From assembly GCA_000091205.1 (NCBI GenBank), contig AP006490.2: a stretch of DNA of 64,000 nucleotides. One strand, written 5' to 3'. Made by a program: the position numbers and the translations under genes. This document shows, in pieces, positions 2 to 61,800 of the stretch. The first letter of the stretch is position 1. Every line of letters begins with the position of its first letter. Origin of the DNA: Cyanidioschyzon merolae (lineage: Eukaryota). The notes beneath the pieces were generated by a model. It ran no database searches. It worked only from the letters and a program-made list of their open reading frames with translations, and was not told where the DNA came from.

Positions 2-847
2 GAGCGGCTCGCTCGCGAATGGCAGATAGCGCGCGCCGGCCTGCGAGCGGCGGTCGCCCAGGCACGTCTGGAGGTCGAGGCTGCGCTGCGCGATGCTGCC
101 TCGAGATCCATTGCGAGTTTGCGGTACTTTACCCACTGGCATCGTCAGCGTGAGGATGAAGCACTCGCTCCTCACCATGATCTTGCAGCGATGATGACCT
201 CACGGGATGCTTCGAAGGAAACTAGCGCCGAACTCGATCCGAGCTCGACTGCAGGTCGTTCTGCTCCAGAAGAGACGGCGCTCGTTCGGGAACTCGAGCA
301 GCAATTGATCGCGACGAAACTGGCACATGCCGAATCCGAGGACAAACTCGAGGAGCTTCGACGTGCGCTTCGAGAGATGCAAGGTCGTTTGCTTCGCGAG
401 CAGCAGCGGACCGTACAGCTCGCGCAAGAGCTTTCGCAACTCCACGGGCAGCAGGTTGTCACGGCAACGCCAGCGGCAACAGCAGCAGTAGCGGATGCGC
501 TACATCATCGCACGACGGGTAGTACGCAAAGCAACGCTGCCGAACTGGTTTCAGGCGCATCAGAAAGTAGACTGTGGAGGCGGTTCTCTGCATTAGATGA
601 GACGCGCACCATCGACACGACTGCCGCGCGAGAGCAGCACGCTCATAGAGAAGGTGCCAATGAAGCTACTGATGCTGCTGCTCGCCGTCGCGCGTTCTCT
701 GTATCGAACGACGCGTCGCTAGCGAGCGGCGCTGGCGACGTATCAGCCACTCAACGACGCTCTGTAGAGCATGCGCGTTCTCGGCGTTTTTTCTGGAATC
801 GACGTCATCGAGCGAACAGCCACACAGAGCCTTCTTCATATGGGTAA
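2..847 (+). CDS. Coiled-coil protein, 5'-partial. The frame is open from the window edge through the annotated Met at 119.
   Basis: Frame 2 has no stop from nt 2 to 847. Heptad-like Leu/Glu/Arg/Gln-rich sequence (ELEQQLIATKLAHAESEDKLEELRRALREMQGRLLREQQ). No recognisable enzymatic motif. Confidence 0.5.
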   Translation, partial: ERLAREWQIARAGLRAAVAQARLEVEAALRDAASRSIASLRYFTHWHRQREDEALAPHHDLAAMMTSRDASKETSAELDPSSTAGRSAPEETALVRELEQQLIATKLAHAESEDKLEELRRALREMQGRLLREQQRTVQLAQELSQLHGQQVVTATPAATAAVADALHHRTTGSTQSNAAELVSGASESRLWRRFSALDETRTIDTTAAREQHAHREGANEATDAAARRRAFSVSNDASLASGAGDVSATQRRSVEHARSRRFFWNRRHRANSHTEPSSYG

Positions 848-1220
848 AAAGGAAACGCGCATCGTGCAGTTCCGGATGAGATTGGCAAGCCGCCCCCGCA
901 CCTGGACGCGTAACGTACGTGGTGCCGCTGCCGCCGCCGCAACAGCAGCAGCGAGCATGCCCTGAATACGCTACGCATCGCTCCGAATCAGAAAAAGAAC
1001 AGAAATGGACCACGAATTACCGGTTAGAGAATCGTATCTTTCCTGCTATACGGTTCGCGTTGACCGGTTATTCGAAATTTTACGTTCTAGGCGGAATGCT
1101 CCGCTAGCAGGACGAGTCTGCCAGGATAATGTTTCGTGCTCCCGCCAGCGACAGGTGATGTAGCGAGACATGAACAACTCGTCCGCAACGCTCTTTATTC
1201 TGCGACTAGGGACAGTTAAG

Positions 1221-1775
1221 GTGCGTATGGGCGCCGCCCATGTTGCAATTATCTCCTAGCATATCGCTTCGCGCTGCCTGCAGCAGCGCGTCTGCCTGCA
1301 CAGCTTGCAGGCTCCGAAAATGATAAAGAATCCCGACTCCGTATCAGGTGAAGCGTTCCTCGATCCGACGCTCTCATTGGTATGGCAAAGCCGCTCTGTC
1401 TCTGTGCTGCATCCGTGCCAGAGGCATTGGCGCTATTGCTGGTGCTCAAAACAGGTACTCTGCGCAAGACGGAACGCACGGAACGACCATTATCTCTGAG
1501 GGGCATTGTGCATACTGGAACTCGGACGTAGTGCTACGCATGACAGACGCTTTCACCAGCACCGATATCCATCACGTAACCTGGAGCTCCTTACACAAAT
1601 ATATCAACGTTCTGTCGATCGAAATCGATATTCTCTCAGTATCTCCGAGAGGATGGATGGGTAATGGACCTTGAACATACCGCGAAGCATGACAGGCGCT
1701 TTCACGGACACCGATACTCATCACGGAACCTCGAGTTCCAAATCCAAATATATCAACGTTCTTTCATGTAAGAAA
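1221..1775 (+). repeat. Dispersed repeat family R1, copy 1. Its ~85-bp 3' module is tandemly duplicated (~1540-1612 and ~1689-1762).
   Basis: Alignable by eye to 42489-42885. Shared blocks: ..atgggcg(c/t)cgccc.., ..tagcatatcgcttcgcgctg.., ..cagcttgcaggctcc.., ..gggtaatgga(c/a)cttga.., ..gacgctttc.. . Confidence 0.6.
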
Positions 1776-1794
1776 CAGGATCGCCCCCGAATCG

Positions 1795-1846
1795 ATGATG
1801 ATAATGATGATGATGACGTGCAGCCCGCCGCCGCCGCCGCCGAAGA
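1795..1846. repeat. Simple-sequence tract: (GAT/ATG)n followed by (GCC)n.
   Basis: gatgatgataatgatgatgatgacg, then gcccgccgccgccgccgccg, read directly. Confidence 0.8.
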
Positions 1847-1995
1847 TCTCTGCACCCAGATGCCGTAGGGCAGCTGCCTGGAGGCAAAGATTTCAAATGC
1901 CCAGGAGCCTGTTCTGGAGGCCGTCGTGCCTGTTAACGCCGCTTCCTGGACGGTGTTCCGCGGTGACCCTAGCATCCAAGTTGGGAACACCAGCA

Positions 1996-3342
1996 ATGCA
2001 ATGGGGAAAGTTCATAGATGCGTTCGGGAAACCGATTGAGAGAACTTCGGCGAAAGCAGTTGTTGAGGAGCCGTTTTCCACGGCGAGGCGCAGTGCAACC
2101 GTAGCGGCTGAGGCGAGTCCAGAGGCAGCGGGCCGTGGAGGAGCTTTCGACGAAGCCCTGAAACTTGTTCAGGACCTCGAAGACCAGAACGAGTGTTTCG
2201 ATGGCTCCAAAGTTGAGCAACTGTGGTTTTTGCTGCGTACAGGCATACTGGATAGGTGTAAATACGCACTAGATTCGGAGACGTCCTCGAGCTGTGGCGG
2301 GCTCAACGCCTCGGGACAGTGCCCGTATTGCCAAAGCCTTGACGCTATCCGGCCAGACTGGGAGAGGTTTTCAGCTTTGTTTCGTCAACTTTCGTTTGGA
2401 AGCAGTGCTGGAAGGTGCACAAATGACACTGCGTCACCGATGAGTGTCACGAGTTGCCGTGCACCGTCGAACATGCAACAGGTGCTTCGTGATTCAAACG
2501 ATGTTCACGACGCAAGCACCGAACTACAAGAACGACTCGAAAGTTTGTTGCTATATCGCGACGTTTTTCTCGCCCACGCAACGCAGGTCGTTCGCGCCCG
2601 CCTTGAAGAGCGGGCGGCATTGCAAGAGGCGATCGCTGGCAAACGCGACCTCATCACAAAGTTGCGGAAGCGAATTGCTGAGATCCAGCGATTGGGTTTG
2701 CCTCGGGAACCGCAAGTTCCTCTGACAATGCCAAAAAACGAGGGCACGCCTCGCGATGCGCATGAAGCGACTGCCTCGCCTGTCGCACTAGACGAGTCCA
2801 TCGACGACGCAGGCGTTGCCGGGAACAAGTCCCCAGCAATCGGTACAGGACCTCTGCCGATGATGCATAACGAGCTGACACTTTCAAATGATGATGCCCT
2901 GTCGTCCGGAGCGTTCTCGTTATCTTCAGCTCGTTCGGGTTTTGTGAGCGAACATGTGCGGGTCGCGAAAACGACCCACGGCGACAAGGTGTCTTCAGTG
3001 GCAGAAATCACGGCGTTGAACAATCTCGCGAACGTTGCTCTACAGCGCCTGCTGGGCTCCGAATCCCCGAGCGCCGCCCCGACTGCGGTGGTATGCGGAA
3101 CCTCACCGCATGCATTCAACGCAGTCAGCGCGGATGTGTTACCAGTGCGGAATGTGCTCAGGGCATTCACCCGACACCCCGAAGGCGTACCCATCTCCGA
3201 GCTGCCAGCAATGATGCTCCGAGAGACCGGCGATCCCGTGGTAGCAAATGAGATCGTGGAGTCGCTTTTGAACGCTTGCGTCCTGGAATACGATGAAAAC
3301 TACACCAGCGTACGACTTTTTTCTGAATTTCATCTGGGGTAG
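1996..3342 (+). CDS. Hypothetical protein with a coiled-coil middle region.
   Basis: Long ORF. The first ATG after a low-complexity leader is at 1996 (MQWGKFIDAFGK). The track's earlier start at 1795 (MMIMMMM) lies inside the microsatellite. No diagnostic motif recognised. Confidence 0.45.
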   Translation: MQWGKFIDAFGKPIERTSAKAVVEEPFSTARRSATVAAEASPEAAGRGGAFDEALKLVQDLEDQNECFDGSKVEQLWFLLRTGILDRCKYALDSETSSSCGGLNASGQCPYCQSLDAIRPDWERFSALFRQLSFGSSAGRCTNDTASPMSVTSCRAPSNMQQVLRDSNDVHDASTELQERLESLLLYRDVFLAHATQVVRARLEERAALQEAIAGKRDLITKLRKRIAEIQRLGLPREPQVPLTMPKNEGTPRDAHEATASPVALDESIDDAGVAGNKSPAIGTGPLPMMHNELTLSNDDALSSGAFSLSSARSGFVSEHVRVAKTTHGDKVSSVAEITALNNLANVALQRLLGSESPSAAPTAVVCGTSPHAFNAVSADVLPVRNVLRAFTRHPEGVPISELPAMMLRETGDPVVANEIVESLLNACVLEYDENYTSVRLFSEFHLG

Positions 3343-13688: not shown

Positions 13689-13900
13689 CCTCAGCGAGCG
13701 TCGTGAACTTGGCTCCGGAGTACCACAGCGCACCGGCCGCCTGCAAGTGAAAAGATATTGCTTCCGTGCGCACCTGCTCGCCAACTTCCCGATAGCGAGA
13801 CTTGACGCGGTCCAAGCGGGTAGTGCGCTCCTCTGCAGCGAAACAAACATAGAACCACAGTCGAACGACCCCGACCGTGTACAGTAGTGACAAACACGCC

Positions 13901-16040
13901 CTAGACAAGAAGTCGCGAACTGGCGTACAGACGCCTCCCCGTCTGTTTGGACCGGCCCCCTACTACTGCTTCCATTTTTTTCTCATATAGTTCGACTTTG
14001 AGAGGTTGTCCAACAAAGTCCTCTCTTGTCAGCTCTGGATGTCTCTGCTCCAGCACCGCACATTTCCTTATATCGATAGCGGCATTAAAATCTCGATTTA
14101 CAAACTCCATCCGTTTCTTGCTATCATTCGTTGTACTAACCAGCGCAAGTAGCCCTCGCACTTTCGCTCTCCTTCCCATTCGCTCTTCCTTCAGCGCACC
14201 CTACTTTGCTATGTCCTCAGGGCTCCGCTGGCACTTTTCCATCTCGACCCTCTGAAGTGTACAACCCAGCTCGTGGTGTGTATACGATGTTCGAAATTCA
14301 TCTATCGGCATTGTACCAAAACGCCATGCGCACTCCTTATACGTTCTCGTCGTTGGAGCTGGCGTAGTTCCTTTTTGGGTCTTCCATCGCCCTGCTCCGT
14401 ACGCTACTACGAGCCATTGACTCTCATCCTCCTTCATGGCGCTCAACTTATTGAAAAAGTTGGCGAACGCCCGCTGCTTCCCACCGTACAGATTCATTTG
14501 CAGACGAGCCCACCGGGGCTTGGTATACTTCCCCCACAGTGCATCCCAACGAGCAACGCGAACTTCCATGACTTTCCGAAAAGCTGTAAAGTCCGCCCCG
14601 CGACTCGTCACCTCGCTCAAAGCTTCCAGGTGATCCTTCATTCCTGCATTCCATGTCTCGATTTTTTCCTCGCATTGATTATAAAGGATTCTCGGTAATG
14701 TCTCTATCTTTAGAACTGAAAAAGACACATGTCTTTCTGACGTAAGTTGCCGTCAGTACCATCTTCCGCACGCTTCGGTGCTGTGATGGTTATGATATTT
14801 GTGTTTCCGGGGTCTGCGTCAACGATAAACTCGTAATCCTCTACCTCTTGCGTCGCAGGATCCTCCTCTTTCTCATCTTCATGCTTCGCCGAAGGCAAAG
14901 CCGAGGGCGGAACATGGCGATCCGCCTTCAGCCGCCCATAGTGTACACACAAGGCTACTCCATCGGTTTCGATCATCCTAACGAAGAACATCTGCTTGCT
15001 CACTTTCAGAAGTTTGAAACTGAAGATGTTCTTCCAGTACGTCTCCCGATTTTCGCCGGTGAACTCCTCCCTGCTAACATTGAACTCCGGACTGATCTCC
15101 ACCATGATGCCATAGAGGACTCTGGAGTCGATAGTCACAAAATGCGACTTGATATTGCACATTGGAAACATGTTGCAGCGCTTTCCCATTAGGAAAGCCT
15201 TCCGTCTCTCCCACTCTTCATTTTTTCCTCACTCAGCTTCACCTCTGCCTTGCGTTCGAGCTGTCGGTCCAGAAACACGAAATAGAGCAGGATGACTTGA
15301 TACCATCTTTTTTCATCAATTTTCAACTCTGATACCTTGTCTGTTGGATTCGGTAGCCCCAGTACCGCACGATGCTCTTGTATAACCGCACGGATCGCGG
15401 AAGCTTCATTCGTACTCCCTTTTGACGCCTTCTTGTCGACGAATTCGACCTCATCTTCATGCTTGCGATCGTACGTGATGCCATTGATAATCGCCCATTT
15501 TCCACTGCGAGAGATGCCCGGGTAGAGTGCAAACACGGCGTGTAACATGAAACGTTCGAGGTTCACTGTCAAATGGTTCTTCAGGTTTGTGATGTACTTC
15601 ATCGCCCCATAGCGGTAAATATCCCGGTCACCCCTGTATCGAGTACTCTCGAACCTGTAAAAGGGATGTGTTTCGTGCAAGGCATGCACTAGCATATCTT
15701 CCCTCCGCGTTTCTTCTCTACAAAGCATCGGGTGACGAATACAGGTCTTGTCGAAAAACTCGTCTGGAATCTCGACTGGTTTGACGTCCGTCACTTCGCG
15801 ATACATTTCCCTCGCCAAATGCATCAGTCCTGACGACGCCTTGAAAATACTCTCGGAGTACGAGTCGACACGTTTTTTGATAGCGTCTCGCAACTTTTCC
15901 CTGTAGGGATCCTTGATATGTTTGAGAAGACAGGTTTTCACCACCATCTTGTGGTACGGTCGTCTTTCTTGCAGCCTTCGACGTAGGGCCTCCCAATTTC
16001 GGTCCTTCTTCTTCTCCTCCTTTTCCTCTGGACTCGGCAC
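13901..16040 (-). pseudogene. Fanzor/TnpB-like RuvC nuclease gene, broken.
   Basis: Four collinear ORF pieces: 15189-16040, 14710-15189, 14201-14728 and 13901-14179. Motifs present: RuvC-I ([15 protein letters not shown]), an E-x-TS segment ([15 protein letters not shown]...EMEKC) and RuvC-III (FVNRDFNAAIDI). The ATG start is lost (cagtg where copy B has atggcg). There is a 1-nt deletion at 15189 relative to copy B (ctaatggg-aaag vs ctaatggggaag), and a second break at 14710-14728. Confidence 0.7.
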
Positions 16041-16343
16041 TGTTTTTTTTTCTGCCAGCCGGTTACCCTGGGCCTCCAGGATCGTCGACTTGGATTTTCA
16101 TATCTTTCCTTTTTTTCGTTTTTTTGAACAAGAACGCTCTTTGAACGCTTCTGTTATATACTGCGAAAAATCAATCGAATATTTTTACTTGAGGTTTGAA
16201 GCACAATCGAACTGAAAGACTGTACGTTGCTATGACCTGAGCAAAAATACAACTTTTACAGTAGATCTACACGCTAGAGATCAGGATCACGTTTCGCTTC
16301 CATGACGGAATACGCGTCTTGTCTCATGCCTGCCCGATCTACG

Positions 16344-16373
16344 AGGTGCGCTCGCTGAGCGCGTTGCGCGCAC
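16344..16373 (-). other. Boundary hairpin at the left end of element A.
   Basis: ggtgcgc / gcgcacc 7-bp stems around a 16-nt loop. The 3' arm (gcgcacctc) is the first sequence shared with copy B. Confidence 0.45.
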
Positions 16374-16796
16374 CGCGCGAGACGCCTCACCGATCGATGA
16401 AGGACACGTGTCCGACGTCGCTTCGGCACATTCGTGTTCGCATCGCGCTGCAGCGGAAATCAGCTGTCTTAGATTGGAAACTCACGTATCTAGCGCCGAT
16501 TCGCGCGTAGCGCGCCGTTGAGCTCGCACCGGCGGCCGTCGTCGCCGCCGCCGGCCGCCGGTGCCGGCCGCCGTAAAGCGCCTCTGCGCGCCAACGATTC
16601 GCGTATCGCCAGGACGTATCGTTGTGGCTTGTCTGCGGTCGGTTGCAGTTCGTACTGTGGTGGCGCAAACGTCGTCGGAAGTGTCTTTGGAGCTGAGTTT
16701 GTTGTGCGCGCGGCGAGCTCACAGTTCCCGCAGCAAAAAGTTACTCTTGCCGGTTAGTAACAGTTTTCCGACGTCGTCTTCTTGAGACCTTTTCCG

Positions 16797-35865: not shown

Positions 35866-37074
35866 GCGACACCGTCAGCCTCGTCCACAACCTGGTTACA
35901 AGTCAATAGCCGCACAAGTCGCAATGTGATCGCCACCACCCCGCTCAATGGAAGCACAGTCAAAAGCAGAATAGCGCTCTGCGAAGACGGCAGGCACTCG
36001 TGCCGAACACTGACATGCGCTGTGCCGTCGTTGCCGCGATCGCCGTGCACTGTGATGGACACGTGTTGCCGGTGCGTCTGCGCCAGTGCACTGCTTTCTT
36101 TTCATGACAACATGGTTATATGGATCATAGATTCCAGTTTGCGGTTTGGATAATGGTAATCAAGAAAGCGTCCGTTATGATACACTTTACTTCCAAGTTC
36201 CATCTCTCATGCTTCCTCTGGGATACACTGGTCATTTCGTACGTTCTATCGTGTGCCAAGTGCCTGTCTTGCTGTACCCGTAATAGCAGATATGAAGCCG
36301 GAGCAGATGCATGACGAAGACAGAGCGGCTTTTGCTATATTACTGAGGGCATCGGAACGAGGAACGCTTGATCTGACACGGAGTCGGCGCTCATAATCAT
36401 TCTAGGAACGAGCAAGTTGTGCTGATAGCCTTACTGCCCGCAGCAGCTCGAGGCGATGGTAGAGGAGTCCACTGCGACCAGGGCGATACCCAGACGCAGC
36501 CAAACCGCCCCTGGTTCCAGAATGAATTGCGTGTCGGACGAGTTGCTGCTCAGGTCTATTCACAGCACTAGGTACTGGGAAGGTCAGGAAGCACTGGTCT
36601 GGCAGACTCGTCCGGCTCGCAGGACACGCCGCCTGGAAGGGACACGATCGACAATTCGGAAACCTGTTCCCTTTTTTAAAGTTTATCGTTGAGAGGGAGA
36701 GAAATTGTTATTTCGTTGCTACCTAGACGCTACTCTCTGTTCTTTGTTCCATATAGTGCGGTCGATACACGCACCTCCATATCTGGGAGGCGTGAGAAAC
36801 GAAGCGCATCTGGCCGTTGAAGGGAAACGTGATACTAAACATGCGCGTGTTATTCTAGCGTAGAAGTTGTATTTGCGTTGAAGTCGTAGCAAAGTATAGT
36901 TTTTCAGTTAAATTGTGTTTCAACCCTCAGCTTAGTGTCTTCAAGTGATTTTCGCGGTTTATAGCAGAAGCGTTCAAGGTGCGTTCTATTTCAAAAAATA
37001 AAAAAATATGGAAAAGGATGTGGAAGATTCTGGAGCACAGGTAGCGCCGGCGGCAAGGAAAAAAAAGATAAAAA

Positions 37075-39573
37075 ATGGCGGAGCAAAGAGGATCAGGAGA
37101 AGACGAAGAAGCTGCACGCGGGCGACAGTACGACGAGATCGTGACGAAAGCCTGTCTCTTTCAACATATCAAGGCTCCCTGCATGCAAAAGTTGCGAGAC
37201 GTCATCAGAAATTGTGTCGATTCATACCCCGGCAGTGTTCGTAACGCTTCTTTAGGACTGATGCATATTCCGAGGGAGAGATATCGCGATGTGACGGACA
37301 TCAGAACAGTTGAGGTTTCGGAAGAGTTTTTCGACAAGACCCTAATTCGTCACCTGATACTTGGCACAGGGGAAACGTCGACGAAAAATGAGCTCGTGCA
37401 TGCCCTCCACGAAAACTTCGCCGAATACGGCTGAAACTGTACTCGGTATCGGGATGACTCGCCTATTTACTGCTACGGAGCGATGAAGTGCCTCACGAAC
37501 CTGTAGAGCCACGTGATCGTGAACCTCAAACGCTTCATGGTACGCTCCGTCTTTGCACTGTACCCGGGACTGTTTCGCAAACGAATATGGGCGATTACCA
37601 ATGGAATCACGAACGATCGACAGGATGAAGATGAGATCGAATTCGTCGACAAGAAGACATCACGCAGAAGAAAGGATGAAGCTTCTGTAATCCGTGCGGC
37701 TATACAAGAGCACCGTGCGGTACTGAGGCTGGCGAATCCAGCAGACAAGATATCAGAGTTGAAAAAAGATACTGAAAGATACGAACGCATCGTCCTGTGG
37801 TATTTCGTATTTCTGGACCAAGAGCTCGAACGCAAGGCAGAGGTGAAGCTGAGTGTAGAGACAAATGAAGCGTGGGAGAGACGGAAGGCTGTCCTAATGG
37901 GGAAGCGCTTCGACGTGGTTCCAATGTGCAATAACAAGTCACATTTTGTGACTATTGACTCCACAGTCCTTCATGGCATCATGAAGGAGATCTGTCCAGA
38001 GTTCGATGCTAGCATGGAGGAGTTCTCCGGTGAAAACCGGGAGACGTACTGGAAGAATATCTTCGATTTCAAACGTCTCAAAGTGAGCAAACAAAAGGTT
38101 TTCACTGGGTTGATCGAAACCGATGGAGTAGCCTCGTGTATACACTATCGGCGGTTGAAGAAAGATCGGCCAGTTCCGCCCTCGGCTGCGCCCGTGACGA
38201 AGGATGAAGAAAACAAAGAGGAGGATCATGTGATGCAGGAGGTGGAGGATTACGATATTGTCGTTGACATGACGAAGCATGAAAAAAAGGAGGCGGCTGG
38301 TCCGGCGACTCAGGAGGTAGAGGATAACGGCTTTATCGTTGGCGCTGCGAAGCATGAAGATGAGAAGGAGGCGGATCTCACGACGCAAGTGGTGGAGAAT
38401 AACGACTTTGTCGTTGGCGCGACGAAGCAGGAAGGTGAGAAGGAGGCGGGTCCTGCGACGCAGCAGGTGCATGAGAAGCGCGTTGTCGTTGGCGCGACGA
38501 AGCATGAAGAAAAGAAGGAGGCGTATCCTGCGACGCAGAAAGTGCAAGATAACGACTTTGTCGTTGGCGCGGACCCCGGTAACACAAATGTCATAACCAT
38601 CGCTGCACCGAAGCGTGCGGAAGATGGTACTGGTGGTAACTTTTGTTAGAGAGACATGCGTCTGTTGAGGTTCTCGAGAGCGAGATACTATTGAGAATCG
38701 GGAATCATGAATGCGAGGAAGAAAATCGAGACGTGGAATGCAGGAATGAAAGATCACCTGGAAGCTTTGAGCGAGGTGACGAGCCGCGGGACGGACTTTG
38801 AAGCTTTTCGGAAATTCATGGAAGTTCGCATTGCTCACTGGGATGCGCTGTGGGAAGAATATACAAAGTCCCGCTGGGCTCGTTTGTGAATGAATTTGTA
38901 TTGTGGTAAGCGGCGGGCGTTCGCGAATTTTTTCAATGAGTTGAGCGCCCTCAAAGAGGATCAAAGTCAAGGGGTCGTAGTAGCGTATGGGGAAGGGCGC
39001 TGGGCGCCCAAGAAAGGGACTATGCCAGCTCCGACGACGAGGGTGTACAAAGAGTGCGCAAGGCGTTTCGTTACAATACCTGTAGACGAGTTCCCAACAT
39101 CGTATACACACCATGAACTGGGATGTACACTTCAGAGAGTGGAGATGGAAAAGTGCCAACGGAGCCCTGAGGAATTTGCAAAGTACGGACCGGTGACGGA
39201 GGAGCAAATGGAAAGGAGAGCGAAAGTGCGAGGATTGCTTGCATTGGTAAGTACAACGAATGACGGCAAGAAACGTATGGAGTTCGTGAACTGTAATTTT
39301 AACGCCGCAATCAGTATAAGCGGATGTGCGGTGCTGGAGGAAAGACCTCGAAAGTCCACAAGAGTGAACTTTGTTGGACAATCGCTCAAAGTAGAATTAT
39401 ATGAGACAAGATTGGAAGCAGTAGTAGGTGGCCGGTCCAATAAGACGGGGAGGCGTCTGCACGTCAGTCGAAGACTTTTCGTCCAGGGCGGGCTTCTCGC
39501 CACTACTGTACACCGCCGGCGACAACGTTTTTCTTTTGAAAGACGTTTGCTGTTGCCGGTGACGGCTGCGTAA
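37075..39573 (+). pseudogene. Fanzor/TnpB-like RuvC nuclease gene, broken.
   Basis: Pieces: 37075-37434, 37513-38649, 38707-38889 and 38890-39573. Ruv[17 protein letters not shown] and E-x-TS ([15 protein letters not shown]) are present. RuvC-III reads [12 protein letters not shown], so the catalytic Asp is replaced. There is a frameshift plus stop at 37434-37513 where copy A is intact, and a stop between 38649 and 38707. The native stop is lost. Confidence 0.7.
38236..38580 (+). repeat. 4.5 x 75-bp in-frame tandem repeat inside Fanzor copy B.
   Basis: 25-aa units (..[26 protein letters not shown]..), each re-duplicating the beta-strand that precedes the RuvC-I DPGNTN motif. Copy A has a single unit. 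Confidence 0.75.
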
Positions 39574-39637
39574 AGCTTTCAGGGAATCACAGAAGAGGGC
39601 TTGCTTTGGTGCTGTGCAACCACGTTCTAGATCGTGA

Positions 39638-42003: not shown

Positions 42004-42488
42004 GGTATCGCCCAGCTGCCACGAACGATGGAGGCTAGCGCGTCCTCGTTTTGGGTAGCGCGCGTGCGCTGCGCGGCCGCGTCGACATGCGACACGCTCC
42101 TGCCACGAGTTGATCAAAAGCCTCGCTCTAGGTACCTCAAAAAGCTTTTGCGGACCGCAAGACGTGCAGCGACGCAGCGCCTGTAATCCAAGATCGATAG
42201 GCTGGAAGTCTTCAAGGAGAAGCTGAAGCCGGCAGCATGCGGCCGGTCAAAGAAAGGCCCGGAGGCGTCTCTAAGTGCGTATTCATGTACATTCAATAAC
42301 GTACCATAAACGTCAAAGGAAGGGAAGACCTTTCCATATTGTCGAAAGTTTACCGCCTAGGCGGAAGGTCCGCGAGCCGGACGAGTGTGCTGCGCTAGTG
42401 CTTTATCCTTCCTCCAGTGGCAGGTGCTGTGGCGAGACCTGCACAGCTCGTCTGCAACGCATTTCATTCTGGGACTAGACACAGTAAA

Positions 42489-42885
42489 GCCGCATATGGG
42501 CGTCGCCCTGGTCGCAGTGGACTCTTAGCATATCGCTTCGCGCTGTAGCAGGCAGTACGTCTGCATGTACAGCTTGCAGGCTCCCAGAATGATTACGTAC
42601 CCCGACCCCGTGTCGCATGAACCAAGCATCGAACCGACGCCCGCAGTGGTACGGAAAAGCCGTTCTGTCTCCGTGCAGCACCTGATTCAGCGGTACAAGC
42701 GCCAAGGCGGGTGTTCACGGCAGGCAGTCGGCGCACGATAGAACGTACGAAACGACCAGTATACTCGGGAGGAAGTATGGGTAATGGAACTTGATGGTAG
42801 GTGCTTCATCGTGGACGCTTTCCCGAGAGCCATGATACATTCCGAATTCTGGGATCCGTGGTCAATGTAAACGTTTTGCCATCTG
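42489..42885 (+). repeat. Dispersed repeat family R1, copy 2.
   Basis: Aligns to 1221-1775 (see that entry). Confidence 0.6.
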
Positions 42886-44101
42886 AAGCAAATGGTGTTG
42901 ATTGTTCTTCCTGAGCCTACCATACCGCGCGGTACCAGGGCGCTGCACTGTAGATGCCTGAGTTTGGCTGGTGCCTCGCGAGTGGACGCGTGTAAGGTCG
43001 CTCGCTTCGCTGGTTGCCGCTCGGCATGGACTGCTACAGACGTTGCGGCAAATGGATCGATCCGGTGAAGAGCAGCGATGATCGTTGGGGATTTTGAAGA
43101 CACATCTATGATTAGAATCGTAAGGAGATAAAGCATCTGAAAAATGGCTGGGAGTATGCTCCATTCATCGATCGTGTGTGGTGGCAGGTATTTTGTGCAG
43201 CGAGGTGAGCGCGCGTCATCAGCCTAGAACTTGCACCGGGGAGCGTTCAAGTCCGATGCATTCTGAACAGAGCCGGGGGCTTGTCACCTCCGTCGGTCGA
43301 GTTATTGATGAGCACGATACGCGTAAATGCGCTGCGAATCGCCTTCGGATCCTTGCTTGACCTTCGCAGCTGCCACCAATATCCGCTCTAAGGCAAGTCC
43401 GACGCTGGCATTCCAGAAAAGCAATGCGAGCTTATTGGGCAGCGATCCTGGCCCCGCGTATCTCCTCGCGCTATGCCTGTTAGCAATCCTAGACTGGCAT
43501 TCCAGCAAAGTTTCATACATTCACTGAGTACGAGTTGGGGGCCTCGCGCATCGGTGCCTTCCCGGCATCGTAACCACTGCCACGAGAACGACAGCTGCCT
43601 TGCGCCGATGCCCGCGACGAACGTCGAAGCTGTTGCGTGTCTGTCGGAAGCTTATATTGATGTATCCAGCGCTGTGGCAAGTGTCTGGGCTAGGCTCGAA
43701 GTTCGTGGGGTCACAGAAGCGGGTGCAAATGCCAGGAGCCGTCACTGCCGTTTCTCAGCGGAGCGACTCGAACCTGCTTCCGCAAATAGCGCCCATTGCC
43801 TAGCACGGCACATCGCTACGCATGCAATCGACTGGTGAAGATGGGCCTCTCGACAGGCTATGTGCTCGCTGACGATGATTTCAGAGGCCTCGAAAAATTA
43901 GCGTTGAAGGACGACAGGGAAGCATACTTGCCTAGGGCAAGCAGCATACTGTGGATAGGGACGGAGCAACTGAATCCGTTTCTCTGGTGCATCCCGGAGA
44001 CAAGCAGGTAGGCAACCAGCCAGGCGTTTAGGTAGGTATTTAAGCAGACATGCAGAGACACATACACTCTGATGCACTCGTATCCGATTCAAATGGTACG
44101 A

Positions 44102-44866
44102 ATCCACTAACTTGGACGAAGGCAATAAAGTTTGATTCTCTTATCACTGTCATAAATACTAGCCTTCATGGACGATTTATGCGACTGCTTCGATTCACGC
44201 GCTCCTAGCTCCGGCTTTGAGTACGCTGGCCTCCCTGCCTGCCTATCCAACTCCGTTGCAAATAGTCACAGCATGTTGGTGGCAGCGTTCAATTACCGAT
44301 GCTGATGCTTCCAGATGTTTTCGACGCATTTCACGCACAGGCAGTACCCAGCATCTGCGCTTCGCTTGCCATTGTGATCTTCATTTCGTTCAGCGTCGGT
44401 GCGCCGGTCGAAGCGACGACGCTCGGCCTTGGTCAGGTGTTCCCGGACGTCGACAATGCTCCGTCTCCCGAGATCCACGCTGTGGCACATGAAGGTTCGC
44501 TTCATGATCCGGGATATGCGCATCACTGGGGCAGAGGACGCTGCTCGATGCCCCGCCTCGTTACCTAACTCGGTGCATCACCGACATAGGATTACCGGCT
44601 TCATCTGAGCGACCCGTCGATGGTTTGGCGTCGCCATTCTACGGAGGATTTCTGGAACACGATGATTTGCATGACGGAACGAGTACCGGACGGCAGTCCA
44701 GGTTGGGTACGAAATTTCCAGAGATTCCGATCCTTCTGGGCATTGCTGGAGCACAGCGGATATGCCGTCGCGAGTCTACACGAATGCTGCAACGACTCAA
44801 GTGTGGTCCTTGTACCCTTTGCCACGGAAACCGAAGAGACGGCATCCTCTTGGTGCATATCCTGTG
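44102..44866 (+). repeat. R3: 765-bp direct repeat, copy 1.
   Basis: About 98% identical to 47807-48570, with only a handful of substitutions and one indel seen by eye. No TG..CA termini. Confidence 0.85.
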
Positions 44867-45149
44867 ACAGGTAACCTGTGGATGCTGTCGGATGTCGCCA
44901 CATGGGTTGCCACGAAATGAGCAGGGATTTATACATCGAACCGAACCGATCACGTGACGTGGCAAGTGGAGCAAACTTCTGGCTTGAGCATACCCCCCAA
45001 TTCGTGAACGACGGACGTCGAGGTTTTTCTCTTCGCCGGCCCAGCTGCGGGAATACCTGCGCCCACGACTTGCCTCGAAATAGAAAGAACGAAACCATGG
45101 AGAATGCCTCATTGGGGCATGAAACACGTAACGATAGGAAAAGAGTCCA

Positions 45150-45669: not shown

Positions 45670-46914
45670 ATGGGACTCTCGACGATAGATGCCGACGTTC
45701 TTCGGTCGTACACGGAGGTTGTCGAAGCAGCAGCGCCGGCAAGCGAACGAAAGGCCGGATTTCTGGTTCAACAGCACGGGGCGCTCGGTGATGGCGGAGA
45801 CGCTTCGCAACCCGCTGGTGGCGCCACTGAGGCTGGCGCTGCCAACAGCGAGGGCGACGCAGGCTCCAACGTTGACATGTTTTATTTCGAGCACGCGCTA
45901 GCGACAGCGATATCCAGCCAGCAGCAACACAGCGCTGGCGGCGGTGGCGGTGGCGGTGGCGCCCCAGACCCGTCTACGGTGCATACCACTGGCTCTGCGA
46001 CCACAACTGAAGGCGTGTCAAACCTCACCAGGCTTGTAGTCGAGGAACAAAAGACACTCGATCTTTTCCACAAACTCAAGTTTAACTGGCTCGAACTGCA
46101 GACAAAACAGTACTTCCTCGAGGTTCTTCTAGGCTGCCCCAAGGGCGTGACACCGAACGATCTTTGTCCATCGGACGCCGCCATTGCCGAACTTGAAATA
46201 TCATCTGCTCAAGCGAAGCAGGAGCTCAAAAAAATCAAGCAGCAGACGAAAAATTTGCACGAACAAATGGAATCACTCTGCACAGAGCTGGCTCGAGCCC
46301 ACGGGATATACCTAGCGTCGTTCAACGAATGCAGAACGGCCGTTGAGGATCTCTGCGCTCGCGTTCAGGAGCGAGCGTATCGAGATCAACTTGTCGAGCG
46401 TGATGCAGAATTAGCGTCACTGCGGCAGCAGGAAGCTGAGATGCTCGCCAAAAAAGCCAAGCTCGAGTGGGAGACGCGACCCCTCGAACAGAGCATCGAT
46501 GCATTGCGAGAAGAAATCGCAGCTACCGAGACGCGACTTGAAAGTGGTAATTCAGCGAGCGAAAAAGAGCCAGACGCCGCATTGCGAGCGCGCTACCAGG
46601 CCATGGTTGCGTGGTATCAAGCCATGATCCCATTGCTCGAGTCTATATCTGGCATTCGAATCGAGCGCTTTGAGACTGATCGCCTAGTGATCAGCATGGA
46701 ACACGCTGTTTCCGACCAAAAACAACAGGCCGTGCTCGATCTCATTCCCGGTTCGTGCTTGATATCTCGGATCACGTTGGAACCGCCACCGTCGCCAACA
46801 AGTGGACTCGACGCCGCCGAAATAGAGACACTTCTTCGCCGTGCGAACGAAACGAACGACATGGGCTGGTTGATTCGCACCCTTCAACAACGACTCTACT
46901 TGTGCGCCCGCTAG
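45670..46914 (+). CDS. Hypothetical coiled-coil protein with a poly-Gly tract; possibly a kinetochore Spc24/Spc25-like architecture.
   Basis: A 414-aa ORF with a clean ATG. Disordered N-terminal region, a central coiled coil, and a globular C-terminal ~120 aa. No diagnostic motif. Confidence 0.45.
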   Translation: MGLSTIDADVLRSYTEVVEAAAPASERKAGFLVQQHGALGDGGDASQPAGGATEAGAANSEGDAGSNVDMFYFEHALATAISSQQQHSAGGGGGGGGAPDPSTVHTTGSATTTEGVSNLTRLVVEEQKTLDLFHKLKFNWLELQTKQYFLEVLLGCPKGVTPNDLCPSDAAIAELEISSAQAKQELKKIKQQTKNLHEQMESLCTELARAHGIYLASFNECRTAVEDLCARVQERAYRDQLVERDAELASLRQQEAEMLAKKAKLEWETRPLEQSIDALREEIAATETRLESGNSASEKEPDAALRARYQAMVAWYQAMIPLLESISGIRIERFETDRLVISMEHAVSDQKQQAVLDLIPGSCLISRITLEPPPSPTSGLDAAEIETLLRRANETNDMGWLIRTLQQRLYLCAR

Positions 46915-47453: not shown

Positions 47454-47806
47454 GAAGCAGCGCCAAAACCAGTGTGCGCGCTCTCTCCCTGTTGAGGACG
47501 CTTTGGGTACGCGGTGCTTGACACACCCTCCAGGGAGCGATGCGCCGCGGCTCTGCTGAAACTTGAGTACGCTCCGTAGCCGACCGTGTGCCTGAGCCTA
47601 AACGGCCACGTTAAGTGCTTCCCCTTGTGAGAGAGTAGCCGTTGTCGGCAACTCAGAACGCCCTAGAGCCACACGAGACTAGCCAGTGGGGTTCACGAAC
47701 GTCGTCGAGACGGTTGCGGCGGCGTTGCCGGTGACGCGTGCAGCCTTGCCGCGGAGCGCACCTGCGGCGTAACACACACCGATGTGAGCAAGTGCCATAA
47801 AACGGA

Positions 47807-48570
47807 TCCACTAACTTGGACGAAGGCAATAAAGTTTGATTCTCTTATCACTGTCATAAATACTAGCCTTCATGGACGATTTATGCGACTGCTTCGATTC
47901 ACGCGCTCCTAGCTCCGGCTTTGAGTACGCTGGCCTCCCTGCCTGCCTATCCAACTCCGTTGCAAATAGTCACAGCATGTTGGTGGCAGCGTTCAATTAC
48001 CGATGCTGATGCTTCCAGATGTTTTCGACGCATTTCACGCACAGGCAGTACCCAGCATCTGCGCTTCGCTTGCCATTGTGATCTTCATTTCGTTCAGCGT
48101 CGGTGCGCCGGTCGAAACGATGACGCTCGGCCTTGGTCAGGTGTTCCCGGACGTCGACAATGCTCCGTCTCCCGAGATCCACGCTGTGGCACATGAAGGT
48201 TCGCTTCATGATCCGGGATATGCGCATCACTGGGGCAGAGGACGCTGCTCGATGCCCCGCCTCGTTACCTAACTCGGTGCATCACCGACATAGGATTACC
48301 GGCTTCATCTGAGCGACCCGTCGATGGTTTGGCGTTGCCATTCTACGGAGGATTTCTGGAACACGATGATTTGCATGACGGAACGAGTACCGGACGGCAG
48401 TCCAGGTTGGGTACGAAATTTCCAGAGATTCCGATCCTTCTGGGCATTGCTGGAGCACAGCGGATATGCCGTCGCGAGTCTACGCGAATGCTGCAACGAC
48501 TCAAGTGTGGTCCTTGTACCCTTTGCCACGGAAACCGAAGAGACGGCATCCTCTTGGTGCATATCCTGTG
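47807..48570 (+). repeat. R3: 765-bp direct repeat, copy 2.
   Basis: See 44102-44866. Confidence 0.85.
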
Positions 48571-48749
48571 GCAGATGCGCACGCCGCGCAACGGCGATAC
48601 CGCGGCTACTGTAAGCTGTCACTGCGCTAGAGTGCAGCTCGCAGGAGCTTCTGGGGAACGCTGTGCGTCGCTTTTTCCCATGATCAAGTCGTTTTCGTAG
48701 TGGTTCCTCGACTAAGAATAGGCTGCATCTAGCGAGAACGCTCTCTAGG

Positions 48750-61204: not shown

Positions 61205-61800
61205 AGCCGCTGCTGGGCCGCCGCACGGTGACAAATTTCGAACGCATGGCGTGGGCGTCCACGATCGTAGTCGTCTTTTAACTTTATTCTATTCCACGTT
61301 CAAGTGAGTGTAAACAGATGCTTTTCGCAGTTTATAGCGGATACATACAAAGTGCGTTCAAGTTCATAAACATATCCTCATCTTGCGGACCATCGGGCGA
61401 AGAATAGCAATTGACGAAGAAGAAGACGGGAGATACACGAGAAAAGGTATTCGCCTAACGGGACATGGCTGAGATTGTAGTGGCACAATGGGCACGAGTT
61501 CTGGCAATCCTTGCAATGATCAGTTGCGCCAAAGGCGAAAAACGCATGGAGTTCGTGAAGTGAGACTTCAACGCCGCCATCAATAGCAGACGATGTGCGA
61601 TACTGAAGACGAGACCAGAGGAGCTGACGCAATCATACCTCATGGGGCAGTCTCTCAAGCTCGAAGTCTAAAAGGAGAATCTGGAACCTATAGCGAGGGG
61701 CCGGTCAAACAAGGCTGGCAGACGTGTGCGCGTGGGTATTCATTAACAGCACATAGAAGTGGGTCATTTTTTGTTTCTCTGAACACATTGTATCTCTGTA
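61205..61800 (+). mobile_element. Internally deleted, non-autonomous derivative (copy C) of the Fanzor-like element: 5' leader fused to the 3' RuvC-III region and tail.
   Basis: 61320-61375 aligns to the A/B leader (gcttttcgcagtttatagcgg.. vs gattttcgcggtttatagcag..). 61540-61760 translates to KRMEFVK*DFNAAINSRRCAILK...MGQSLKLEV*KENLEPIARGRSNKAGRRV, homologous to the A/B C-termini but carrying stops. The conserved ..tctctgtacc.. tail follows. Confidence 0.6.

Follow-up and report, generated by a model that had tools for sequence, protein, structure and literature searches.

The window, a stretch of 64 000 nt on contig AP006490.2 of Cyanidioschyzon merolae, has a GC content of 55.7 % and holds long intron-less eukaryotic and plastid-related genes, with ATP synthase beta and HIT among the neighbours; Rfam and tRNA scans were both empty. 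Copies A and B of a transposable element lie within it, together with smaller related pieces (Table 1). BLAST of the window against itself aligned copy A (16350–13871, minus strand) with copy B (36770–39519, plus strand) at 76–82 % nucleotide identity, bearing out the inverted homologous pair announced in the preliminary description.

Table 1. Positions of the CMe-1 and TE-N2_CMe-like features in the window
Feature	Positions	Strand	Basis
Copy B, decayed full-length CMe-1A (Fanzor1 transposon)	36104–39549	+	blastn against the published 3169 bp consensus
TE-N2_CMe-equivalent 5′ module of copy B, corresponding to the first ~635 bp of CMe-1A	36104–36740	+	Consensus positions 3–~640, 79.6 % identity
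Remnant of the Fanzor1 ORF in copy B, 734 codons, ATG at 37008	37008–39486	+	Codon alignment to consensus ORF 906–3110
75 bp (25-codon) tandem repeat in copy B, five units, just upstream of RuvC-I	38196–38571	+	Tandem Repeats Finder
RuvC-I Asp (DPGNTN), kept in copy B	38572–38574	+	Codon alignment; column invariant in 86-sequence alignment
RuvC-II Glu (vDEFrTS), kept in copy B	39088–39090	+	Invariant column; aligns with lDEYKTS of SpuFz1
RuvC-III motif (ten residues) in copy B	39289–39318	+	Codon alignment; consensus NRDFNAAINI
Non-coding 3′ tail of copy B	39487–39549	+	Intact terminal hairpin at about 39525–39546
Copy A, decayed CMe-1, structural variant without the N2 module	13846–16488	−	Consensus 660–3137 = 16351–13877, 85.3 % identity
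Alternative 137 bp 5′ segment of copy A that the CMe-1A consensus lacks	16352–16488	−	Similarity to sequence upstream of other copies
Solo TE-N2_CMe-like copy	1072–1584	−	Consensus positions 33–543, 78.9 % identity
Solo TE-N2_CMe-like copy	42302–42883	−	Consensus positions 2–581, 83.2 % identity
Third CMe-1 relic, internally deleted, heavily decayed	61292–61733	+	Consensus 810–889 = 61292–61370 (75 %); 2889–3088 = 61534–61733 (72 %)

When copy B was compared by blastn with the 3169 bp CMe-1A consensus, which encodes a 734 aa protein and was taken from the supplement of PMC3627910, positions 36104–39545 aligned with consensus positions 3–3169 at 82–87 % identity. The 3′ end (…GAAAGACGTTTG) is conserved and reaches about 39549. 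The bounds first given for the element, 36756–39575, had to be replaced: copy B runs from about 36104 to 39549 and copy A, whose decayed 3′ tail extends to about 13846, from there to about 16488. CMe-1A is a family of DNA transposons in the red alga C. merolae, for which Bao & Jurka (2013, Mob DNA 4:12, PMC3627910) report about 150 copies, each with some 80 % identity to the consensus; it is described as lacking TIRs and as having TE-N2_CMe as its first 635 bp, some of its copies are still intact, and CMe-1 was placed in Fanzor1 by the same authors (PMC3627910). By homology to the consensus at the level of about 80 % both copies belong to the family (82–87 % for copy B and 85 % for copy A), and the 5′ stretch of about 635 bp equal to TE-N2_CMe is present in copy B and missing from copy A. 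Since it lacks the TE-N2 5′ end, copy A is a structural variant of CMe-1 and not a strict CMe-1A. Copy B is a decayed member of a family catalogued in 2013, so that the finding is real but ordinary.

The two copies also differ in internal structure. Tandem Repeats Finder returned a period of 75, 5.0 copies and 75 % matches for 38196–38571 of copy B, a repeat that is present as one unit in the consensus and in copy A; the extra 300 bp of copy B are in frame, and the same expansion was found in the orthologue of copy B (L029). The 137 bp segment at the 5′ end of copy A matched sequence upstream of other copies (L028, L007, L026, L052 and L064) at 79–85 % identity, with the homology stopping at the same point, and consensus positions 646–687 are the start of about a third of 80 metagenome copies. 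TE-N2_CMe, a non-autonomous C. merolae repeat of about 635 bp with about 70 copies, and the Fanzor unit may have been fused or may share a 5′ end.

Interrupted reading frames and the RuvC residues

Neither copy has an uninterrupted frame. Copy B carries five in-frame stops, at 37432 (TGA), 37504 (TAG), 38647, 38692 and 38887 (TGA), its frame is also shifted by two indels in the Lys/Glu-rich N-terminal part (+2 at about 37067 and −1 at about 37118), and its terminal stop is gone through a TAG to CAG change at 39484–39486. Copy A is frameshifted in three places, by −5 at about 16048, by −1 at about 15228 and by −1 at 14666, and has four stops, at 16065, 14712, 14706 and 14203. The same short stretch is hit in both copies at differing codons, 38647/38692 in copy B as against 14712/14706 in copy A. 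Codon alignments located the frameshift that had been seen in copy A as a 1 bp deletion at about 15227–15230, a point at which copy B, as proposed, is continuous (..NEAWERRKAVLMGKRFDVVPMC..). The converse, that copy B is broken where copy A is open, holds for the interruption at 37432–37506, but the break placed at 37434–37513 is no indel and consists of two in-frame stops.

Introns or an alternative genetic code behind the stops were considered and rejected, as long ORFs nearby are free of internal stops under the standard code and the consensus ORF is open wherever the copies are interrupted. Decay driven by CpG or of a RIP-like kind was likewise rejected, the C-to-T rate being 0.141 at CpG and 0.130 elsewhere.

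The catalytic triad of the consensus (D431, E603 in DEFRTS, and R671–D672) occupies columns that are invariant in the 86-sequence alignment; copy A reads D, E, D and copy B reads D, E, N. In copy A the RuvC-III motif is NRDFNAAIDI with GAT as the Asp codon, and in copy B Arg is replaced by Cys at 39292–39294 and Asp by Asn (AAT) at 39295–39297, so that the Asp/Asn difference described earlier is confirmed at the codon level. The orthologue of copy B has TGG (Trp) and AAC (Asn) at these two codons, which makes the D-to-N change common to both. In RuvC-II of copy B the Arg adjoining the motif Glu region (vDEFrTS) is Pro. Among 79 copies, D672 is N in seven, E in three and V in two, and substitutions in catalytic codons are spread over many dead copies. 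The further claim that copy B is catalytically dead at RuvC-III had to be withdrawn. The changed residue aligns with D606 of SpuFz1 and N658 of GtFz1; GtFz1 is active with a natural Asn at this position and the D606N variant of SpuFz1 is more active than the wild type (PMC11423790), and an Asp-to-Asn change at RuvC-III is therefore no sign of nuclease death in a Fanzor1. Copy B is dead through its destroyed reading frame, with five stops and two frameshifts, and not through its RuvC-III residue.

Orthologous loci, divergence and alternative readings

Independent JGI metagenome assemblies contain orthologous contigs at about 99 % identity. The orthologue of copy B is 99.2 % identical to it with no indels and shares four of the five stops and the D-to-N change, the TGA at 38887 being the only stop without a counterpart. 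The orthologues of copy A, from three samples (L083–L085), are 99.3 % identical, carry its frameshift near 15228 together with every one of its stops, and were called as an identical chain of ORF fragments. The lesions of both copies are thus real, and the statement that the breaks are not assembly artefacts stands, because these loci carry most of the same lesions. The idea that one or both copies are intact genes, and that their stops and frameshifts stem from errors in sequencing or assembly, has practically no chance of being right: a few lesions do lie in homopolymers (14666 of copy A in an A-run, about 37067 of copy B in an A-rich stretch) and L084 differs by a further 1 bp in length at 14667, but most lesions are base substitutions rather than homopolymer indels, and the recurrence of the copy B structure with its stops, and of the copy A frameshift with its stops, argues against error. 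Domestication of copy B as a nuclease-dead Fanzor, an RNA-guided DNA binder inactivated by D672N and kept for a role in the host, is in our view extremely improbable. The changes D672N and R671C fall inside the RuvC-III motif, the 3′ hairpin is intact and an orthologue is kept in a related strain; however, five in-frame stops and a frame-shifted start bar a full-length product, and the D-to-N change leaves Fanzor1 enzymes active. The comparison with the orthologue gives 18 nonsynonymous to 7 synonymous differences, with stops gained or lost between strains at 38887, 39002 and 39484, which fits neutral evolution, and divergence is higher inside the element (0.93 %) than in its flanks (0.6 %), which also argues against domestication. 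The differences between strains include a cluster at 39258–39356, for which gene conversion is a candidate explanation and in which the consensus-matching allele is that of the window in 14 cases, that of L029 in 11 and neither in 7.

The preliminary description had further taken copies A and B for paralogs that arose by duplication and then decayed independently. An inverted duplication within the region followed by pseudogene decay of both copies would account for two inverted elements about 20 kb apart at 76–82 % identity, and 70 derived sites are shared by the copies relative to the consensus (240 differences from the consensus are found in copy A only and 229 in copy B only). This sharing exceeds a rough hand estimate of about 10–15 coincident identical changes, and the excess points to some subfamily ancestry in common or to consensus errors. 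Against duplication, the identity of either copy to the consensus (85.9 % for copy A and 86.3 % for copy B) exceeds that between the two (79.4 %), and both belong to a dispersed family with about 150 copies; dozens of copies elsewhere are closer to each of them, A and B taking the 60th and 56th places of 84 when the relatives of the other are ranked; and homology is confined to the element, with no flank homology found between the copies and with unlike 5′ modules, N2 in copy B as opposed to the alternative segment in copy A. The dN/dS ratios obtained from codon alignments were 0.41 for consensus and copy A, 0.32 for consensus and copy B and 0.43 for copies A and B, while a neutral simulation of 200 runs, with a substitution spectrum from the non-coding sequence of the family itself, gave 0.76±0.10 with a minimum of 0.52. 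All 200 runs thus exceeded the A–B value, and about 12 stops would be expected at such divergence where 4–5 were observed. A dN/dS below the neutral range indicates that most of the divergence between the copies predates pseudogenization and was not accumulated after both were already dead, a misfit with duplication followed by decay, which we consider very unlikely. Of the earlier statement of independent decay after duplication, the independent acquisition of the disabling mutations stands; the duplication does not, the copies not being duplicates of each other and their divergence being mostly older than their decay.

The dN/dS values place most of the divergence in active lineages; neutral decay of a few percent came afterwards. 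Taken together, our results indicate that 36104–39549 is very probably a complete but dead CMe-1A, and that copy A, a structural variant whose 5′ end differs, inserted independently of it. In such a history, active CMe-1 lineages would have diversified while selection preserved the Fanzor1 protein, one lineage would have inserted at the A site and a different one at the B site, and each insert would then have drifted neutrally by a few percent, gaining stops, frameshifts and scattered missense changes (D672N and R671C among those in copy B). Copy B is no longer able to make the protein.

The encoded protein and the terminal hairpin

Fanzor1 is a eukaryotic TnpB-like RNA-guided RuvC endonuclease. 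The sole gene of CMe-1A, as judged from sequence, encodes a Fanzor1 protein: an 86-member family profile had three matches only in the PDB, all of them Fanzor1, namely PpFz1 (9cf0, E=3.2e-25), SpuFz1 (8gkh, E=1.7e-18) and GtFz1 (9cer, E=4.3e-15), and the CMe-1 motifs DPG, DEF(R)TS and RD.NAA aligned with the catalytic motifs of the solved Fanzor1 proteins. Searches of the PDB with a single sequence (phmmer) and with a 6-sequence profile gave no match, and in Pfam scans no family reached E≤0.01 for the repaired copy A protein, for the fragments of copy B or for distant homologues; the only precomputed Pfam label on the homologues is a weak DUF8286, and Pfam TNB reached E=0.23 only, across the RD.NAA segment. 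In the region between [TS][TS] and RD, where a C4 zinc ribbon (OrfB_Zn_ribbon / TNB) was looked for, both CxxC pairs are absent in CMe-1: the region reads a ten-residue stretch followed by …EKC…LALVSTTSDGKK, and the clade alignment has no conserved Cys column. An AlphaFold2 model of an intact homologue (P0045) from a 6-sequence alignment had a mean pLDDT of 45 and a pTM of 0.29, too poor for use.

The 3′ tail of copy B ends in a hairpin (ACGTTTTTC-TTTT-GAAAGACGT), which in the sequence of copy B and its orthologue folds at about −15.5 kcal/mol (z=−3.5). A terminal hairpin is kept in most copies, with at least three different stem sequences and a median z of −2.3 over 33 copies. Since the pairing register shifts from one hairpin variant to another, RNAalifold gave a weak consensus (−2.5 kcal/mol) over the terminal 190 nt in 31 copies, and hairpins were folded per sequence instead. 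Rfam gave no match for a putative omega-RNA. We infer that the hairpin of copy B is a candidate for the 3′ end of an ancestral omega-RNA scaffold or for a transposon-end hairpin. By analogy with characterized Fanzor1 proteins, the ancestral protein would have bound an omega-RNA transcribed from the element's 3′ end, which has the conserved hairpin just inside the boundary, and would then have cut DNA matching the flanking guide, favouring retention and spread of the element.

Implications and comparison with known systems

As a textbook decayed transposon copy, copy B has little discovery value. For annotation, the region is better masked as CMe-1A/TE-N2 repeats than recorded as a paralogous gene pair, and the conserved terminal hairpin could be used for omega-RNA mapping in a genetically tractable red alga. 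One of the 344 metagenome copies (L018) has a 733 aa ORF with an intact D-E-D triad, and the dN/dS values together with this possibly intact copy back an earlier remark that the old family long kept its Fanzor1 gene under selection. It is conceivable, if improbable, that CMe-1 is not extinct in natural Cyanidioschyzon populations and that dead copies such as B still matter; the reading draws on the L018 ORF, on diversification under purifying selection and on a 3′ hairpin kept through compensatory changes. If it were true, copy B, with its 3′ hairpin and 5′ N2 module intact, could provide a guide RNA, or an intact Fanzor1 could mobilize or target it in trans. On the same improbable reading, the two interchangeable 5′ modules (N2 and the 137 bp segment) might record a modular uptake of the Fanzor unit.

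The likeness to the CMe-1A consensus (82–87 % identity) extends over the whole length of copy B and over positions 660–3137 in copy A and includes a single intron-less ORF, the absence of TIRs and, in copy B, the TE-N2 5′ module. The copies differ from it by four additional 75 bp repeat units in copy B and by the 137 bp alternative 5′ segment in copy A, and both are dead, whereas some intact family members are reported in PMC3627910. The N2-equivalent part of the consensus is matched both by the first 635 bp or so of copy B and by the solo copies of the window; unlike copy B, TE-N2_CMe has no coding capacity. The CMe-1 family itself is not known to have a transposase, TSD or TIR.

With SpuFz1, GtFz1 and PpFz1 (8gkh, 9cer and 9cf0; Saito 2023, Xu 2024), Fanzor1 nucleases whose structure and biochemistry are characterized, the CMe-1 protein shares a homologous REC/WED/RuvC/TNB region in which the catalytic D, E and D/N are aligned, and by analogy an omega-RNA would be expected at the 3′ end of the element. 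It differs from them in its low sequence identity and in the lack of a four-Cys zinc ribbon in its clade, and no TIR-bearing host transposon is known for it. With TnpB of the IS200/IS605 and IS607 elements (OMEGA) the likeness lies in the split RuvC nuclease with its D-E-D triad and in a guide RNA that would be encoded at the end of the element, and the sub-terminal hairpins and the absence of TIRs and TSDs are of the IS200/IS605 type. In contrast to the TnpB elements, CMe-1 lacks TnpA, resides in a eukaryotic host and has in its consensus an N-terminal Lys/Arg-rich, NLS-like stretch, and its direct Pfam matches to TnpB domains are below threshold.

CMe-1A elements in the window

Comparison of the window with itself revealed two inverted copies, 13871-16350 (-) and 36770-39519 (+), with 76-82% nucleotide identity (copies A and B). 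The repaired protein was not directly recognized by Pfam or PDB, and a homologue search retrieved 53 proteins, nearly all from JGI metagenomes, with DUF8286 as the best label. Bao & Jurka (2013, PMC3627910) described CMe-1A as a Fanzor1 family of the red alga Cyanidioschyzon merolae, with some 150 copies, all roughly 80% identical to a consensus about 3 kb in length, without TIRs and with TSDs undetermined, and whose 5' 635 bp correspond to another repeat, TE-N2_CMe; the supplement provides a consensus of 3169 bp and a protein of 734 aa. We compared the 3169-bp consensus with the window by BLAST and found five matching features. Since B matched consensus positions 3-3169, it is a full-length CMe-1A element, which starts about 650 bp farther upstream than the span of 36756-39575 assigned to it in the preliminary description. 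B and A thus belong to a repeat family that is already described. The internally deleted relic must be either older than A and B or further decayed, and a short partial TE-N2_CMe-like copy at 1637-1731 adjoins the solo copy at 1072-1584.

Matches of the CMe-1A consensus in the window
Feature	Position	Strand	Consensus positions	Identity
Copy B, full length	36104-39545	+	3-3169	82-87%
Copy A	16351-13877	-	660-3137	85%
Solo N2-like copy	1072-1584	-	33-543	79%
Solo N2-like copy	42302-42883	-	2-581	83%
Third relic, internally deleted	61292-61370 + 61534-61733	+	810-889 + 2889-3088	72-75%

The genes around the copies are long intron-free ORFs (55.7% GC) of the ordinary nuclear kind expected in a photosynthetic eukaryote, consistent with C. 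merolae, and include those for mitochondrial ATP synthase beta, HIT, a C2H2 protein, Tab2, Sos7, WD40, FKBP-TPR and DDHD. The ORF with the kinetochore Sos7 domain (45670-46914) is flanked by a 773-bp direct repeat (44098-44870 and 47802-48574, 99.2% identity), a far younger duplication than the CMe-1 copies, which may be LTR-like or segmental.

Lesions and relationship of copies A and B

The sequence statements of the preliminary description were examined by six-frame translation and codon-anchored alignment. B is uninterrupted at ..NEAWERRKAVLMGKRFDVVPMC.., where A is frameshifted by the loss of one base at about 15228. The converse claim, that B is broken where A is open, also held (37432-37506), although the breaks, placed at 37434-37513 in the preliminary description, are stop codons at 37432 and 37504 and not indels. 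Three further in-frame stops (38647, 38692 and 38887) bring the total in B to five, its terminal stop is changed to CAG at 39484, and two indels in the Lys/Glu-rich N-terminus (+2 at about 37067 and -1 at about 37118) put the ATG at 37008 in a different frame from the ORF body. A carries three frameshifts (about 16048, about 15228 and 14666) and four stops (16065, 14712, 14706 and 14203). Upstream of RuvC-I, a 25-codon repeat is present in one to at least five units among copies, always in frame, and also in the homologous proteins P0001, P0007 and P0009. In B, this 75-bp repeat forms a 300-bp in-frame expansion of five units (38196-38571), which are only 75% alike and whose expansion is therefore old; it was probably tolerated in active proteins.

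To determine whether the lesions were consensus errors that concealed two intact copies, independent assemblies were used in place of reads, and the lesions recurred in the orthologues. The orthologous locus of B in a different assembly (L029) is 99.2% identical overall (99.0-99.8% in the flanks), with no indels; of the five stops it lacks only that at 38887 (CGA instead of TGA), and it has both the repeat in five units and the change from Asp to Asn (encoded by AAC, as compared with AAT in B). Three A orthologues from other samples (L083-L085, 99.3% identity) contain the frameshift near 15228, all the A stops and the same chain of ORF fragments; within the ORF remnant they differ from A by indels only in the A-rich N-terminal stretch and the A-run at 14667, with two more 1-bp differences upstream of the ATG. 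The different stops and frameshifts of A and B are thus real, and their decay was independent, as had been proposed. Coding-frame differences between B and L029 comprise 18 nonsynonymous and 7 synonymous changes, together with one gain, one loss and one reversion of a stop, and the locus is now evolving neutrally. Of the 32 B-L029 differences, 11 are concentrated in a stretch of about 100 bp that includes RuvC-III (39258-39356), as compared with about 1% elsewhere; consensus-matching alleles are mixed between the two there, and gene conversion by another copy is one possible source.

The description of B as a duplicate of A was not borne out, with five concordant lines of evidence against it. 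In a three-way alignment, A and B were 85.9% and 86.3% identical to the consensus, respectively, and 79.4% to each other; 240 of the differences were found in A alone and 229 in B alone, and only 70 were common to both. Among 84 related copies (80 metagenome loci and others), B ranked 60th in nearness to A and A ranked 56th to B, while the nearest non-orthologous relative of each was the consensus. Homology between them ends at the element ends, and their 5' ends differ, with the N2 module in B and a 137-bp segment (16352-16488) in A. This segment, which replaces the TE-N2 module and is not in the published consensus, was also found upstream of CMe-1 bodies in five copies (L028, L007, L026, L052 and L064), and about one-third of the 80 metagenome copies begin at consensus positions 646-687, suggesting two or more alternative left ends for the Fanzor unit.

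Selection and the RuvC-III position

The dN/dS values were 0.41 (consensus-A), 0.32 (consensus-B) and 0.43 (A-B), the last of which also counts against duplication. A neutral simulation (200 runs, using the substitution spectrum of the family's own non-coding sites) gave 0.76±0.10 (lowest value, 0.52) and predicted about 12 stops at this divergence, as compared with the 4-5 observed. Given the low dN/dS and the few stops, most divergence arose in lineages still encoding a selected protein, and post-insertion drift accounts for only a few percent. In agreement with this, some CMe-1A copies are reported to encode an intact Fanzor1 (PMC3627910), and a metagenome locus (L018, Ga0080006_1163603, element about 38-3106) contains an ORF of 733 aa whose catalytic positions are occupied by D, E, R and D; an environmental population may thus carry an intact CMe-1 Fanzor1 gene. 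Another locus, L001, has a 722-aa ORF. In the non-coding columns of the 84 copies there was no CpG excess (C-to-T 0.141 at CpG vs 0.130 elsewhere) and nothing to indicate that methylation-driven or RIP-like mutation had acted on the repeats.

Translation and codon-anchored alignment confirmed that the RuvC-III Asp is kept in A (NRDFNAAIDI) and is Asn in B, but the claim that B is catalytically dead at this site is not supported. The CMe-1 RD Asp column aligns to an Asn of GtFz1 (N658) and to chain residue 1000 of 8gkh, counted along the printed alignment, which we take to be SpuFz1 D606, provided that about 394 residues are contributed by the N-terminal MBP tag (an estimated offset). The third catalytic position of GtFz1, an active enzyme, is Asn by nature, the D606N variant of SpuFz1 cleaves better than the wild type, and N658D GtFz1 is less active than its wild type (Xu et al. 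2024, PMC11423790). Since the change in B lies at exactly this position, it cannot be read as inactivating. Among 79 copies, the third catalytic codon encodes N in seven, E in three and V in two, the remaining two catalytic codons show similar substitution rates, and at one locus samples differ in having D or N (L030 vs L043). In B, the substitution is among many neutral ones in a gene that stops had already destroyed; the adjacent R671C (consensus numbering) and a change of R to P in DEFRTS have probably done more damage.

The 3' tail and comparison with Fanzor1 systems

The omega-RNA bound by Fanzor1 comes from the transposon 3' end, in some cases extending into the last part of the ORF, and its guide is supplied by the flank (Saito 2023); the ancestral CMe-1 Fanzor1 would likewise have used an omega-RNA from the element 3' end and a flank guide. 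Two hairpins, a GC hairpin and a terminal one, lie within the 60-65 nt past the CMe-1 stop codon, together with a conserved ACTACTGTACAC box; the terminal hairpin is followed by GCGTTTG where the element ends. The terminal stems occur in at least three versions with paired changes (CGTTTTTC/GAAAGACG, CGTTCGA/TCGAACG and GTTCTAC/GTAGAAC), and of 33 non-redundant copies, most had a hairpin that folded better than its shuffled counterparts (median z = -2.3). These stem versions come from the 3' tails of copies L001-L082 and of B (39487-39549), in which the hairpin is intact; in A it is decayed. RNAalifold gave a weak consensus structure for the CMe-1 3' ends, which had no matches in Rfam. The hairpin is compatible with either of two candidates, an end hairpin like those of IS200/IS605 or the 3' end of an omega-RNA scaffold.

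Searching 1.8 billion representatives with a profile yielded 3175 relatives, and an alignment of 86 of them contained invariant D (DPG), E (DEFRTS) and R-D (RD.NAA) columns. Against PDB, the 86-sequence profile matched only three entries, all Fanzor1: PpFz1 (3e-25), SpuFz1 (2e-18) and GtFz1 (4e-15). In contrast to the Fanzor1 motif of Bao & Jurka, the CMe-1 clade lacks the four-Cys zinc ribbon; its DPG, DEFRTS and RD.NAA motifs align to the catalytic residues of all three enzymes.
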